Shown in pieces: positions 1 through 14,667 of a DNA stretch of 64,000 nucleotides. Position 1 is the first letter of the stretch. Each line of letters starts with the position of its first letter. The position numbers were made by a program, and so were the translations under genes. The stretch comes from Escherichia coli (GTDB lineage: Bacteria; Pseudomonadota; Gammaproteobacteria; Enterobacterales; Enterobacteriaceae): the NCBI RefSeq assembly GCF_003019035.1, contig NZ_CP027447.1. One strand, 5' to 3'. The notes below the pieces were generated by a model. That model searched no databases. It was not told the DNA's origin and saw only the letters and a list, made by a program, of their open reading frames with translations.

Positions 1-518
<518 letters not shown>

Positions 519-610
519 CTAATCCTTTGAATTTACATAGTAAAAAAGATACTTTTCCTCATAGTGTGAGCTAATTTTATGTTTCGTTTGATGATCGGAC
601 CGGTCTCAAA

Positions 611-712
611 AACCGCAGGCACGTTGTATGCAAGAACGTGCTGTGGCTGGCTGGTGAACTTCCAATAGTGCGAATATTGAATGATTTCTATCTGTTATAG
701 ATTTTACCGTAT
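611..712. repeat. Conserved ~100-bp element, copy A (homologous to 5170-5268)
   Basis: About 75% identity to copy B. Hairpin CACGTT(620-625)/AACGTG(635-640) around loop GTATGCAAG; copy B has compensatory changes in the stem. Confidence 0.4.
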
Positions 713-947
713 TTCGGCATGAATGAAACTGAATATCCTCCCACCGATTCTCCATGACTTTACGCCACTGTCTCTAGGGCTGCTATGTGCCAGAGGCGGA
801 CGTTGTTAAAATAGAAAATATCCCAACCTTGTATGAGTCGTGCAATAATTTCGAACTTTATACAAAGCTTTGGTTGTAAAGGTGTATAACCACAAGTGAC
901 ATTAATCACATTTGTAAAGGCAAAATGCAACAAACTGAATTAGTTAA

Positions 948-1099
948 TTGCGTAAATTTGAAGTTATGTTAAGGTGGTGATGGTTTATGGGCAGATTTTG
1001 GGTCGCGTTTCGCGATCAGTGAAAAAAATGTCCGATAGGATTGCCTTTCAGGATCTCATGTTCCTCGCATTTCTTAAGGTTCTTGTCAAGTTTGCGTAA
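948..1099 (+). ncRNA. Candidate retron msr-msd non-coding RNA (speculative)
   Basis: Retron RTs normally have a cognate ncRNA just upstream. 948-961 (TTGCGTAAATTTGA) can pair with 1086-1099 (TCAAGTTTGCGTAA) over 14 bp including 3 G-U pairs, enclosing 124 nt and ending 35 nt before the RT start. No long msd-like hairpin was identified by eye. Confidence 0.2.
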
Positions 1100-1133
1100 G
1101 AGTGCCCATAAACCCTTTTAGAGGCGATCTAAA

Positions 1134-2969
1134 GTGAAACGACTACAATCATTAAAAGAAGCAAAAACAAAACCAGACTTGGCTAAGCTATTAGGAATCA
1201 AACCTTCAGCGTTAACATACTGCCTATATGTATTAAAACCTGAAAATCAATACACACAGTTTAAGATACCAAAAAAAAATGGCGGCGAACGGATAATAAG
1301 TGCACCTAACGGAATATTAAAGACGATACAGTCATCCTTATCAAGACTGCTTCTAGATTGCTTAGACGAAATAGTTTGCATTAAGTTTCCAGACTCAGAG
1401 TTAGCAAGGCAGAAAGCAAAAAACTCAAAAATATTAAAGTTAAAATGTTCCAACTCAGAAATCAAACAACCCTCACTGTCTCATGGATTTGAAAGAAAGC
1501 GTTCAATTATTACAAATGCAATGATGCACTTGGGGAAAAAATATGTTTTTAATATAGACTTGGATAATTTTTTCGGCAGTTTTAACTTTGGTAGAGTCCG
1601 AGGTTTTTTCATAAAAAATAGAAACTTTGCACTCGATCCGGAAATCGCAACTGTAATTGCTAAAATTGCGTGCTACAACAATGAACTACCCCAAGGCAGC
1701 CCATGCTCCCCAGTAATCACTAATCTAATCACTCACTCGTTAGACATTAAACTGGCAGCGATTGCATCAAGAAACTCATCCACTTTTACAAGATATGCTG
1801 ATGATATTACATTCTCTACGAGGAAGGGGGAGTTTCCTTCTGCTATAGCAAAAAATCAAAATGGTAAATATATCGTTAGTAAGAAAATTAGGGGCGAGAT
1901 AACTCGCTCAGGTTTTATAATTAATGATGGGAAGACAAGAAATCAGTATAAAGACTCGAGGCAAGATGTAACAGGCTTAGTGGTTAATAAAAAGCCAAAC
2001 ACGAAAAAAGAATATTGGAGGCTTGTGCGTGCGCAATGTGACCATTTATTTAAACATGGTGAGTTCTTAGAGGTGATTGACGGCAAGGAAATAAAGGGGA
2101 ATGTTAATACCCTTGCAGGCAAACTTAACTTCATAGACCAAGTTGACCACTATAATAGATTGCGTCAAGGCGAAAAATTAAATCCAAAATATCACTTAAA
2201 AAAAGATGCCAATAAAAATGGCCATGCCAAAAAAAGGCGTTACTTACATAGTTCTAGAGAAAAAACGTTTAGTGAGTTTCTCTTCTATCGTTTATTTTAT
2301 GGCAATGAATTACCAACAATTCTTACGGAAGGTAAAACTGACAATATTTATCTGAAGGCAGCAATACATAAGTTAGCCTCATCATTCCCTAATTTGGCGG
2401 TCGCTGAAAGTCCAGGGCTCTCTTATAAGCCACGGACTAAATTTGTTAACTACAATGAGCGGACAAAATATTTACTTGAACTTTATGGTGGTGCTGATTA
2501 TTTAAAGGATTTTGTTATTCATTATAAACAACACTTTAATCGTTATAAGGCTCCCAAACCATCTAATCCAGTAATTATACTTGTTGATAATGATAGCGGA
2601 CCAAAAGATCTGATTAATTACGTTAGTAAAGTTGATAATATTGGTATTTTCCCCACAGGTGTTCCAGATATCCGCGCCTCTGAGTTTGTACATATTTTTT
2701 GTAATCTTTATTTAGTGCTTACCCCTCAAGTTAAGGGATATACAGGAACTGATATAGAGCATTTTTTTAAAGATGCAGATCGACTTAGACCACATAAAGG
2801 TAAGTTTTTCAATACAGTCTCTAAGCGTGATCATGATAATGATTTGAGCAAGGAATCTTTCGCAACTCATATTGTTCATGCCCACAAGCATGAAATTGAT
2901 TTTAGTGGATTTACAAGCCTGTTAGAACGGTTAGTAAAAGTCATAAATCACTTTGACACTGTTAAGTAA
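1134..2969 (+). CDS. Retron-type reverse transcriptase fused to C-terminal TOPRIM-like domain (611 aa)
   Basis: GTG start with GAGG 9 nt upstream. RT motifs: KKNGGERIISAP (aa 47-58), NAxxH as ITNAMMH (aa 126-132), IDLDNFF (aa 141-147), LPQGSPCSP (aa 185-193), YADD (aa 221-224, nt 1794-1805), VTG (aa 280-282). C-terminus: ILTEGKTD (E399, nt 2328-2330) and ILVDNDSGP (D485/D487, nt 2586-2594), the Glu plus DxD pattern of TOPRIM. Visibly AT-rich relative to flanking core genes. Confidence 0.8.
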   Translation: MKRLQSLKEAKTKPDLAKLLGIKPSALTYCLYVLKPENQYTQFKIPKKNGGERIISAPNGILKTIQSSLSRLLLDCLDEIVCIKFPDSELARQKAKNSKILKLKCSNSEIKQPSLSHGFERKRSIITNAMMHLGKKYVFNIDLDNFFGSFNFGRVRGFFIKNRNFALDPEIATVIAKIACYNNELPQGSPCSPVITNLITHSLDIKLAAIASRNSSTFTRYADDITFSTRKGEFPSAIAKNQNGKYIVSKKIRGEITRSGFIINDGKTRNQYKDSRQDVTGLVVNKKPNTKKEYWRLVRAQCDHLFKHGEFLEVIDGKEIKGNVNTLAGKLNFIDQVDHYNRLRQGEKLNPKYHLKKDANKNGHAKKRRYLHSSREKTFSEFLFYRLFYGNELPTILTEGKTDNIYLKAAIHKLASSFPNLAVAESPGLSYKPRTKFVNYNERTKYLLELYGGADYLKDFVIHYKQHFNRYKAPKPSNPVIILVDNDSGPKDLINYVSKVDNIGIFPTGVPDIRASEFVHIFCNLYLVLTPQVKGYTGTDIEHFFKDADRLRPHKGKFFNTVSKRDHDNDLSKESFATHIVHAHKHEIDFSGFTSLLERLVKVINHFDTVK

Positions 2970-3197
2970 TATTATGATGCGCACTGATTATTCCTTATTC
3001 AGCTAAAATTTCTACTGTAGTCCCAACTTCCGTTCCTCGCTCATAACAGACATTCACTACAGTTATGGTAGAAGGTATGCATGCTGGGTGGGGAAAGTAT
3101 GAAGGAAAAGAAGACTGCTGCGCCGTTTGTTGTCACATTTATCTTCATTGGCTATGCAAGTCGTAATACAAGGTGGGACAAAACTGAGACACATAAG

Positions 3198-3230
3198 GCC
3201 TCGCAATGACTTGCAAGGCTTTACATGTTT
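3198..3230 (+). terminator. Possible intrinsic terminator downstream of the RT gene
   Basis: Imperfect hairpin GCCTCGCAA/TTGCAAGGC (3198-3219, loop TGAC) followed by a T-rich stretch. Confidence 0.25.
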
Positions 3231-3298
3231 TGATGTGGTGGGACGTGTGAGCGCAGTGTTGATGGGGTAATGCTTTGAATTAGAAGCGGATTCTTATA

Positions 3299-3344
3299 AT
3301 TCGTAATGCGAAGGTCGTAGGTTCGACTCCTATTATCGGCACCA
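3299..3344 (+). pseudogene. thrW: 3' fragment (46 nt) of tRNA-Thr(CGU) thrW; island att junction
   Basis: ATTCGTAATGCGAAGGTCGTAGGTTCGACTCCTATTATCGGCACCA matches the anticodon loop (CGT), T-arm and acceptor 3' strand with CCA of thrW as I recall it. The 5' half (GCCGATATAGCTCAG...) is absent, so this is not an intact tRNA gene. Confidence 0.7.
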
Positions 3345-3707
3345 TTTAAATCAATAAGTTATCTCACATTTAAGTAAACTACGTTCTCCTCTTGTGCCTT
3401 TGATTTTGCTCGCGTGCGCGGTGAAATGCCTGACTGAAAGGTGAGCATATCGACGAACCATTTCGAGAGTTTCCCATCTGCTCATTTTTAAGTGCAAGCA
3501 GGAAAACACCGGACTAAACCAATCAGCTGTTCGAAAATGGCAAGCGGATTAATATGCCATGGCGGGGCAGCTTTGAGCCGCACGCATGGGGTGTGGCAAG
3601 CCTGATGGATTTTGCTGTGCCTGTGGTGGCGTGTTTGCTGGTTTGGCTGTTGGTTAAACGCGAAAGTCATAATGCCAGGGGAATACCGCAGGGTGTTCAG
3701 GTTTTGC

Positions 3708-4556: not shown

Positions 4557-4570
4557 TGCATTGAATGATA

Positions 4571-4600
4571 AAAATGGCGCAAATACAGCGCCATTTTTAT
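4571..4600. terminator. Bidirectional intrinsic terminator between convergent yagU and ykgJ
   Basis: Stem ATGGCGC(4574-4580)/GCGCCAT(4588-4594), loop AAATACA, flanked by A-run upstream and T-run downstream. Confidence 0.5.
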
Positions 4601-4805
4601 AGGTTAAAAACATTGTTTTTAACTTTCTGATGGCAGATAGCCAGTGAGTACATCGCGCTACTTCAGGATGCTGTAGATCCGGAGAACACTATAGAGGAAG
4701 AGGCATTGTTGCTGGCAGATGGAAGAAGTTTCGGGTTTTGTTATCCCTGAAAAACGAAGCCCCGCGATTATAGCTGGCGGGGCAGTGCAATTAATTATTG
4801 CATAT

Positions 4806-5135
4806 TTATAACGGTGTCAGCCCGTATTTAGCTCTTGCACGATTGCAAGCCTCATTGACGACTCCGTTCTCACCAGACATGGCGAATTCTCTGCACGTGG
4901 AAGATCGATTTTTATATATCGTGCAGCAGGCATTTTTGCCCGGTGTTCCTGCAAGGGCAATACATCGGGGGTTTTTCTGATTGGTACCGCTCATGCATCG
5001 GTGAAAAGGGGATATTTGTTCAGTGAGCCTGGCGGGAATGGTACCGCCAGCATCGTCGGCTTCGGCCCAGTAAAAAGAGACGCGGAAAAATGCACAACAG
5101 GCACCACACGTCATGCATGGATTCAGATTGCTCAT
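4806..5135 (-). CDS. ykgJ: YkgJ, putative zinc/iron-chelating (ferredoxin-like) protein
   Basis: 109-aa [20 protein letters not shown]... with CxxCxxCC motif. Confidence 0.85.
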
Positions 5136-5169
5136 AATTCACCAGTACAGCTATAAATCGTAAAGAGAA

Positions 5170-5268
5170 CTGCGGTACGTCGTATGCAGGGACGTATCGC
5201 GGTTGGCTGGTGTACTTTCGATAGTGTGAGTATTGAATGATTTCCAGCCGTTACCGATTTTACGTCCT
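5170..5268. repeat. Conserved ~100-bp element, copy B (ykgJ-ecpE intergenic)
   Basis: Hairpin TACGTC(5176-5181)/GACGTA(5191-5196) around loop GTATGCAGG, followed by GGCTGGTG...ATAGTG.GA.TATTGAATGATTTC shared with copy A. Confidence 0.4.
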
Positions 5269-5447
5269 AATTAGTGAAGAAACCACTCGTTAGCAGGCCG
5301 CCTGGTACCTTTCCGTGTCTCCTGAACACTATGGTGTACATATGAGAAAGCTCATCGTTACAGGTGACATTGACGATCGCTTCCACATCATTTAAACGAT
5401 TTTTGAGTCTCTGAGGTGGAATTCTTCCCTCGTCCGATGGATAAGTC

Positions 5448-13757: not shown

Positions 13758-14667
13758 TATAAAGATACATGCTCATCCGGATCATTTCAACACCCAATCC
13801 CTGTGACTATTTGTGGGATGTGGAATTTCCGCAACGGGGAAGTCTGAAATTGTTAGCAGCCATTGGCGACGCTCCCATAAACGCCTGGATGAGTGATTGA
13901 TGATGGTTTCGCTGAGAGTATGGATTTTTCGAGAATGGAGGCTATCTCCACTTTACTGGCCGATGATTTATCGCAGTTTGATTGATTACCTGACAGCGTA
14001 TATTCCTCTCCCACGGATATAATAATTACTTACAAAAAAGGGAGAGGATGCATATTTTAAATATCACTGAAGTGAACAGTTTATTGCCGTTATTAATAGA
14101 AATGGAGAAATAAATAGGCGTATTCTACAATTGCGACAAAAACAACGATATTAATCAGTTTATGACTGATTTGCTGTACTTTATTCTCTTTCATTGGTAC
14201 TTCCTCGCTTTAAAAAAGAGTGCACTTCGTAAGTGCCCTTATATAAATAACGAGTTTGGTCAACCAATTTTTTGACATGTATCACAAATTTGAATAGATG
14301 TATTACATCGGCTATCTTTTATTGCCCCAACGTCATTGATATATGTCGCCTGAAGTCAGTTCCGGGAATGAGTCTGATCTCAAGATTGGCCCAGCCCTGG
14401 CGTTGATTGGCGCTGAGGAGCATATCGCATCTCATCGTAATGTCGTATCTCCTGGGGTGTTATACAAGATATCGTTGTAGGTAACCAGGGAGAGGAATTG
14501 AGTTCTATTAAACCGTCAACTATGCCGGATACATACTGGATTACACTGCAGGCACGCCTTACGAGAGAACGTGCCGCAGTGACGGGTTAATTATCTGAAA
14601 GAATTTGTGAGGCTGTATCGGTTACTCATTGGTTTGATAGTTTTACTCTCGGGAGAGTAATAGATAT

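Follow-up and report, generated by a model that had tools for sequence, protein, structure and literature searches.

What is the sequence of about 100 bp that occurs twice within 64,000 nt of Escherichia coli DNA (contig NZ_CP027447.1; the whole analysed stretch is called the window below), and does it belong to the genes before it, to the genes after it or to neither? An earlier note, made from the sequence alone, had paired positions 611-712 with 5170-5268. BLASTN recovered this pair as 618-707 and 5174-5263, with 78.9% identity over 90 nt (E = 9e-17), and MAFFT recovered it as well; the shared block described in the note reappeared in the alignment as GGCTGGTG...TATTGAATGATTTC. The two stretches could be kept as units, with their limits corrected as listed in Table 1, where they are called copy A and copy B. 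The 6-bp stem noticed in both copies was real, but it was just the inner part of a hairpin of 11 to 12 pairs with one bulge. A BLASTN search of the 64-kb window with positions 590-820 as the query gave no third related stretch better than E = 0.04. In the ecp region (14545-14579, minus strand), the hairpin model gave a weak match of 14 bits, probably to an unrelated hairpin.

Table 1. Positions of the two copies, their parts and the neighboring features in the window
Feature	Position	Strand	Evidence or remark
Copy A, core element	about 604-709	-	nhmmer hit 707-604, E = 4e-30; alignments; sequence read
Copy A, GTAAAATC	707-700	-	
Copy A, conserved block	699-647	-	
Copy A, hairpin CCACAGCACGTT / CTTGCATAC / AACGTGCCTGCGG	646-613	-	sequence, covariation, folding
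Copy A, TTTTT	612-608	-	
Upstream extension of copy A, ~95 nt	713-806	-	common to lambda (between ea31 and the element) and EC7-type prophages; absent from copy B
PD-T4-3 (GIY-YIG) defense gene, 5' part, downstream of copy A	1-423	-	PADLOC PD-T4-3, 2.4e-140 on the EC7 orthologue
Retron type I-C RT-Toprim (Ec67 family), upstream-side cargo, divergent	1134-2969	+	NCBIfam retron_Ec67_fus, 742 bits against a cut-off of 450; PADLOC RT-Toprim_I-C; EC7 RefSeq annotation
Copy B, core element, ecpE-ykgJ intergenic region	about 5160-5265	-	nhmmer hit 5265-5158, E = 1.5e-29
Copy B, GTAAAATC	5263-5256	-	
Copy B, conserved block	5255-5203	-	
Copy B, hairpin	5202-5170	-	followed by a weak T-tract
Decayed 3' end of a dinI-like gene, ~65 nt	5271-5335	-	aligns with the intact dinI-like genes of L004 and L005
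ykgJ, gene downstream of copy B	4806-5135	-	

A BLAST survey of complete E. coli genomes with 141 nt around copy A as the query located 16,175 places in 5,407 of 5,426 genomes, with a median of 3 and up to 9 per genome, and nearly all of them were chromosomal. Matches were also found in 219 records of the phage collection, including lambda derivatives, HK97, phi80, mEpX2, and many Stx phages. In a collection with one genome per species, the exact core pattern was, among the matches listed, confined to Escherichia apart from a few contigs that were short or looked like contamination. Diverged copies were present in Salmonella phages. The element sits between ea31 and ea47 in lambda and abuts the annotated sib/tI site in HK97, and it is an unnamed non-coding module in the accessory ("b") region of lambda-like prophages, with the tail-fiber genes on one side and the attachment site on the other. 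The genes seen next to it were tail-fiber, pin, dinI, and phage integrase genes. Of the Salmonella copies, the one in phage ZC-S1_prp (L143, 2440-2660) lies between a sopE effector cassette and integrase fragments, and the other (L144) lies between tfa and the chromosomal sitD.

The view that the element belongs to no named family was upheld by our searches. In Rfam 15, on either strand and at E-value limits of 1 to 10, no family other than CssrB overlapped copy A or copy B, and the CssrB match was confined to the hairpin and below the threshold. Literature searches for a name of the element found none. The REP, BIME, and ERIC repeats are, we assume, unlike the element in sequence and also in context, as the element is found at prophage ends only. 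The family itself appears undescribed, though it is present in phage lambda; its kind is familiar from phage terminators, from mosaic joints, and from the boundaries of morons (the concept of Juhala et al. 2000).

The anatomy of the element was determined from an alignment of 89 distinct contexts, taken from 120 viral contigs and the annotated loci and oriented as the window minus strand. The homology starts with GTAAAATC, followed by GGTAACGGCTGGAAATCATTCAATACTCGCACTATCGAAAGTTCACCAGCC, a short linker and the hairpin, which reads CCGCAGCACGT-TCTTGCATAC-GACGTG(n)CTGCGG in the alignment. A conserved block of ~60 nt lies between GTAAAATC and the hairpin. Both edges were sharp, and the homology stopped at GTAAAATC on one side and at the last stem pair on the other, with at least 22 types of upstream flank and at least 43 types of downstream flank beyond them. 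As the conservation of the block might have been an artifact of the search pattern, the contexts were resampled by the hairpin alone. The block was found in 70 of the resulting 74 distinct contexts (one to four changes were seen in 12 of them, and 20 formed a diverged subfamily), and was absent from the other 4. Motifs of the IHF, LexA, and CRP-like kinds were looked for by eye, and no convincing match was seen. A Chi-like site on the plus strand, GCTGGTGA, was rejected, as it departs from Chi at its eighth base and the adjacent T and A are not constant from copy to copy (TG, TT, TA).

Single-base insertions and deletions in both the block and the hairpin rule out a conserved reading frame, and the starts and stops were inconsistent among the copies. 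We also considered whether individual copies encode a small protein, either in the 63-aa ORF of lambda imm21, in a 49-aa ORF at positions 606-755 or in the plus-strand fragment annotated by PGAP as a capsid protein. Some frames are indeed open in some copies, and, as judged by eye, one open frame is common to lambda and copy A. However, the lambda frame meets a stop in copy A, and the variable sites showed no obvious three-base pattern by eye, so that a coding function is hardly credible. The two annotations concerned, namely the 63-aa ORF drawn across the element in the lambda imm21 record and the 81-bp "capsid protein" pseudogene on its plus strand (L002 7043-7123 and other RefSeq genomes), look spurious.

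The compensatory difference between the stems of copies A and B, pointed out in the earlier note, was found to be general. Across 53 distinct variants, changes on both sides were seen at 7 of the 11 hairpin pairs, and 92% of the cells were paired. None of 500 shuffles reached the observed covariation, and sliding the register reduced the pairing to 27 to 57%, indicating that the covariation holds on a wide alignment. The loop TGCATAC was strongly conserved. The mean folding energy over the 53 variants was -16.4 kcal/mol, and the hairpin is thus a G+C-rich stem-loop of the kind seen in intrinsic terminators. Its stability was even between the strands: the leftward fold was the more stable one in 20 variants and the rightward fold in 21. 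In the two window copies, pairing was better on the plus strand; in copy A, the one A.C mismatch on the minus strand becomes a G.U wobble on the plus strand. A wobble test for the strand, with 36 G.U against 18 A.C, was not decisive.

The T-tract, the mapped RNA ends and the upstream stop codon orient the element, and all of them are on the window minus strand. Five or more T residues in the 8 nt after the stem were found in 29 of the 53 variants, spread over 34 different tails, and three or fewer were found in 17, including that of lambda; both Salmonella copies were also without a T-tract. The tail of copy A is TTTTT, and that of copy B is TTCTCTTT. On the opposite strand, every variant continues with CTGGCTGG or TTGGCTGG. 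A simple terminator scan flagged no copy because the loop exceeds the 8-nt limit of the scan. RNA 3' ends were taken from the published Term-seq data of strain MG1655 (Adams 2021, PMC7815308), which list one site at 304212/304213 (minus strand), found under each of the three growth conditions, and another at 1632571/1632574 (plus strand). The 61-nt strings of that table, covering -50 to +10, were read against the K-12 sequence to place the ends. Both sites are located 6 to 8 nt after the stem, on the strand of the leftward element. The first belongs to the orthologue of copy B and projects near window position 5165, and the second belongs to the copy in prophage Qin; for copy A, an RNA 3' end is predicted near 606. 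The site at 304212/304213 has a Rho score of 1.44 ("No") and an intrinsic-terminator score of 2.78 against a cut-off of 3.0 (PMC7815308). The published K-12 data thus place an in vivo, Rho-independent 3' end shortly after the stem, as a terminator would, although trimming to the hairpin would also fit. The hairpin-only copy in prophage Rac had no mapped 3' end in the K-12 Term-seq data. We regard the leftward strand as the functional one because of the dinI-like stop codon upstream, the T-tails on one strand only and the mapped 3' ends.

A second set of MG1655 3' ends was noticed downstream of the hairpin, at 1632744 (plus strand) and 1434540/1434552 (minus strand), in the ynfT/ynaM-ydfK/ynaE leaders (L132, L133). 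These ends match Hfq-bound "riboswitch-like" leader fragments mentioned by Bilusic (2014).

Transcription in the other direction has some evidence of its own. CssrB (RF02799) of Shigella flexneri, detected as a ~180-nt northern band, ends in the same hairpin with a ykgJ-type flank, and EcOnc47 of E. coli O157 Sakai is probably situated on the hairpin and tail of the copy in prophage Sp15, a placement that assumes that the coordinate offset of +142 measured at stx2B holds at 2.9 Mb. Copy B and the Sp15 copy also pair better on the plus strand. An Hfq-bound RNA of the CssrB/EcOnc47 type could accordingly have the hairpin as its 3' end and run rightward from the ykgJ-type flank, opposite to the leftward reading of the element. 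However, the plus-strand matches to the CssrB covariance model were restricted to the terminal hairpin, in the last ~50 of 180 model positions, and scored 27.3 bits for copy B, 19.5 bits for the Qin copy and 15.2 bits for copy A, far below the gathering threshold of 76 bits; the conserved block does not occur in CssrB. In addition, no variant has a T-tract after the hairpin on that strand, and the K-12 Term-seq data contain no plus-strand 3' end in the ecpE-ykgJ region. We consider a functional plus strand improbable. For the leftward strand, Table S2 of Tree (2014) lists no sense-strand Hfq peak at the Sp15 copy, but sense peaks up to 100 bp from a coding region had been filtered out of it, and the copy is this close to dinI, so that the table speaks neither for nor against Hfq binding. 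The AgvB/AsxR-type anti-sRNAs and other EcOnc RNAs of O157, which were tried as relatives, were rejected, as they are located at the PR' moron site and not at the element.

Both window copies are located upstream of minus-strand genes, and the earlier note had offered a regulatory RNA or operator as one reading. The element would then be a cis-acting leader, attenuator or operator of the GIY-YIG gene PD-T4-3 at copy A and of ykgJ at copy B. The K-12 3' end indeed lies 30 to 31 nt before the ykgJ start codon and is listed among possible 5'-UTR ends (PMC7815308). The wider set of contexts spoke against this reading. The downstream genes fall into ~37 unrelated ORF families, as counted with a crude ORF caller, or are convergent tail-fiber assembly genes; the homology does not extend past the end of the hairpin and stops short of the downstream unit; and HK97 has nothing downstream on that strand. 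Hairpin-only copies are also found downstream of genes. In most prophages, the element is directly preceded by a dinI-like gene, identified in its intact form by NCBIfam, and starts a few nucleotides after the stop codon of this gene (L004, L005, and Sakai Sp15). A role in the control of the downstream genes is therefore very unlikely. Because the element starts a few bases past the dinI-like stop codon and the homology ends at the hairpin, its anatomy is that of the 3' end of the upstream unit and not that of a leader of the downstream one.

We consider it probable that the element works as a 3'-UTR/terminator module in the leftward direction and, in addition, as a recombination joint between accessory-gene cassettes. 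On the window minus strand, the element would form the 3'-terminal part of a transcript, consisting of ~60 nt of untranslated sequence and an RNA-ending stem-loop, which would act as an intrinsic terminator or as a hairpin protecting the 3' end. The module would close the upstream unit, most often the dinI-like gene, and insulate the next gene. The mapped 3' ends presumably arise by termination rather than by trimming. The intrinsic terminators of lambdoid morons and accessory genes are comparable in several ways. They also consist of a G+C-rich stem-loop, usually followed by T residues, which ends a leftward accessory unit, with 3' ends 6 to 8 nt past the stem, and they separate independently acquired genes. 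However, the element differs from them in being one homologous family at many junctions, with a 60-nt block and a conserved loop, and its T-tract lies outside the homology. The tI/sib site is unrelated in sequence and is located immediately upstream of the element in HK97.

Some observations are not explained by a terminator module. A plain terminator leaves the conservation of the 60-nt block and of the loop TGCATAC unaccounted for, there is no strand bias in the hairpin stability, and about one third of the variants are without a T-tract. The intrinsic-terminator score in K-12 falls just below the cut-off, the Rac copy lacks a mapped end, and EcOnc47 in Sakai and CssrB in Shigella suggest opposite-strand transcripts at some copies. 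The conserved block, the conserved loop and the strand-neutral pairing thus keep alive both a small RNA and a function at the DNA level, two readings that the earlier note had already raised.

A trans-acting small RNA of ~85 to 95 nt would have two stem-loops, the second of them the terminator, and would be either processed out of the upstream gene's 3' UTR or transcribed from a promoter of its own, with AAAUCAUUCAAUACUCGCACUAUCG as a seed or protein-binding site. The architecture of the element is like that of small RNAs, RNA 3' ends are mapped, and the block is conserved beyond the needs of a terminator, also in the copies selected by the hairpin and in the Salmonella phages. For typical copies, the folding z-scores were about -3.1 to -3.6. 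The first stem of such an RNA, GGCTGG/CCAGCC, had weak support in the main set of contexts, but in the diverged subfamily it changed compensatorily to GGCTGA/TCAGCC and GGCTGAC/GTCAGCC. On the other hand, many variants of this stem are one-sided breaks, copy A does not form it (z = -0.6), and the U-tails are often short. The promoter evidence was similarly divided. A scan tool found no sigma-70 promoter near either window copy. In a systematic search for -35 sequences, one flank family provided a candidate, TTGAAT, 18 nt before the TAAAAT of the element (a 9/12 promoter match), whereas the other flank clusters were at or below the shuffled expectation, indicating that most copies have no promoter of their own. 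Taken together, a small RNA is possible, though we think it rather unlikely. A promoter-bearing flank in L148, L150, and their relatives contains, ~60 nt upstream of the block, the sequence GTATTGAATAATTCC, an imperfect inverted copy of GGAAATCATTCAATAC in the block, and places two ATTCAA/TTGAAT motifs in opposite orientation ~40 nt apart.

Small RNAs derived from 3' UTRs, such as CpxQ, SroC, and DapZ, are a general class in enterobacteria. The element resembles them in having an over-conserved sequence just before an mRNA terminator and a mapped 3' end. It differs from them in moving between unrelated upstream genes.

The second part of the proposed explanation concerns the genes around the element. 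Additional hairpin-only copies were found with an HMM of the hairpin, and they revealed a recurrent layout, in which a full element is followed by one gene on the same strand (a pair of genes in one case) and then by a copy of the hairpin. The genes bracketed in this way were lambda ea47, PD-T4-3, a gene for a 222-aa protein, an SDH/ClpP-like gene, and a pair of an HTH and an ImmA/CapP-like gene. Loci L038 and L052 had three hairpin-bearing copies, full or near-full and hairpin-only, enclosing two cassettes. Empty sites were also found. In HK97, the element is directly followed by the flank that in EC7 comes after the second hairpin, and in contig L033 it is followed by the flank that in lambda comes after ea47. 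The comparison of the filled and empty sites showed that the segment present twice in the former is the hairpin. Furthermore, two types of upstream flank and two types of downstream flank were seen in every one of their four possible pairings (c1, c22, c43, and c82), indicating reassortment of the flanks. The ~100 bp common to unrelated flanks could thus provide a homology patch for swapping accessory and defense genes, with the inserted genes bracketed by two hairpin copies, and recombination at the element would be the process that moves the cassettes.

These data would also fit a recombination joint that acts at the DNA level only, in which the hairpin is selected as a DNA or single-stranded DNA structure, or is simply hitch-hiking homology, and the RNA ends are incidental. 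The pairing is kept equally on both strands, the breakpoints cluster at the two edges while the flanks reassort, the gene insertions duplicate the hairpin, and two-cassette arrays exist. However, in the examined loci, no dedicated recombinase travels along with the element, and the 5' edges of the hairpin-only copies vary by 3 to 9 nt, so that there is no single crossover point. T-rich tails occur in many unrelated flanks on one strand only, and the RNA ends are at the distance from the stem expected of a terminator. We therefore judge a joint without an RNA function to be unlikely, somewhat more so than a small RNA.

Two known kinds of genetic exchange were compared with the combined terminator and joint. 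Integron gene cassettes are bounded by attC hairpins. Like these cassettes, the genes at the element are single genes bracketed by an imperfect hairpin repeat, can form arrays of two, and have their pairing conserved over their sequence. Unlike integrons, the examined neighbors contained no integron integrase or attI, the hairpin-only edges vary with no fixed crossover, and the element is found in phage genomes, where general recombination suffices for exchange. In lambdoid phages, conserved boundary or linker sequences have been proposed as guides of module exchange. These resemble the element as short conserved intergenic stretches between mosaic modules with reassorting flanks, but the covarying hairpin and the mapped RNA ends of the element indicate that it is not mere homology. 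As a more tentative extension, which we put forward as a rather unlikely possibility, the hairpin element may define a cassette system in lambda-like prophages, in which single accessory or defense genes end in the same hairpin and are gained, lost, and shuffled by recombination there, in the manner of integrons but without an integrase. The 60-nt block might also yield an unnamed phage-borne regulatory RNA, lambda included. The cassettes of such a system might comprise PD-T4-3, ea47, methyltransferase-like, protease-like, and regulator-pair genes, with the retron or transporter cargo adjoining.

Copy A would be this module as found in a prophage with PD-T4-3 and a retron. The prophage looks alive and contains pinE as well as Mu-like baseplate and tail-fiber genes. 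Window positions 1-3398 are 99.6% identical to strain EC7, which has a second, hairpin-only copy after PD-T4-3, with the two hairpin copies at L001 7021-7062 and 6002-6039. Beyond the core, the upstream extension of copy A is shared with lambda, and blastn aligned window positions 613-804 with the ea31-ea47 region at 80% identity and positions 1-809 with L002 at 92.8%. The cargo insertion starts at 809-810, and its content varies by strain, with a retron here and a BCCT transporter and other genes in L002. The msr/msd non-coding RNA of the retron should presumably lie in the ~320 nt upstream of it (810-1133), beside the extension of copy A, and an Rfam search of positions 810-1133 gave no match. 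Judged from gene content, PD-T4-3 and the retron probably make this prophage end a two-system defense locus. A C-terminal integrase fragment lies at 3351-3509 on the minus strand, and position 3398 is the limit of the near-identity with EC7. In EC7 and K-12, yagU is preceded by yagP'-paoDCBA, whereas the window reaches yagU (3942) almost directly; the pao genes seem to be missing in the strain of the window.

Copy B lies in the ecpE-ykgJ intergenic region, directly after the decayed dinI-like gene, whose stop codon is the complement of positions 5271-5273. The order of dinI, element, and a truncated ykgJ also exists in Sakai prophage Sp15 and in viral contigs. Because of the dinI stump and this shared order, we interpret the ecpE-ykgJ region as a fossil prophage end, and copy B would be a module that stayed behind together with ykgJ and the dinI stump and has become fixed in almost every E. 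coli. The comparison further suggests that the "core" gene ykgJ itself may be of prophage origin. Pseudogenes resembling ykgJ were seen after the element in prophages, at ~1165-1300 of L130 (Sakai Sp15) and at 1452-1646 of L150. On the other side of ykgJ, the yagU-ykgJ intergenic region contains a full-length match to Rfam IS009 (window 4562-4763, plus strand, 191.7 bits), which corresponds to the sRNA EcsR2 of Raghavan et al. (2015). EcsR2/IS009 was considered as an identity for the element and rejected, as it is a separate element in the yagU-ykgJ region.

These results provide a short signature for the variable accessory locus at the tail-fiber end of lambda-like prophages. In the examined loci, this accessory locus carries PD-T4-3, a retron, the T3SS effectors EspW, EspM2, and SopE, and dinI, and the signature could let such cargo be harvested systematically across thousands of genomes. 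They also point out an unannotated conserved non-coding element between ea31 and ea47 of phage lambda, and they suggest that a "core" E. coli intergenic region, ecpE-ykgJ, with a formerly unexplained Term-seq 3' end, is a prophage fossil. If the conserved block is indeed a regulatory RNA, it would be a new player in phage-host regulation in almost every E. coli.
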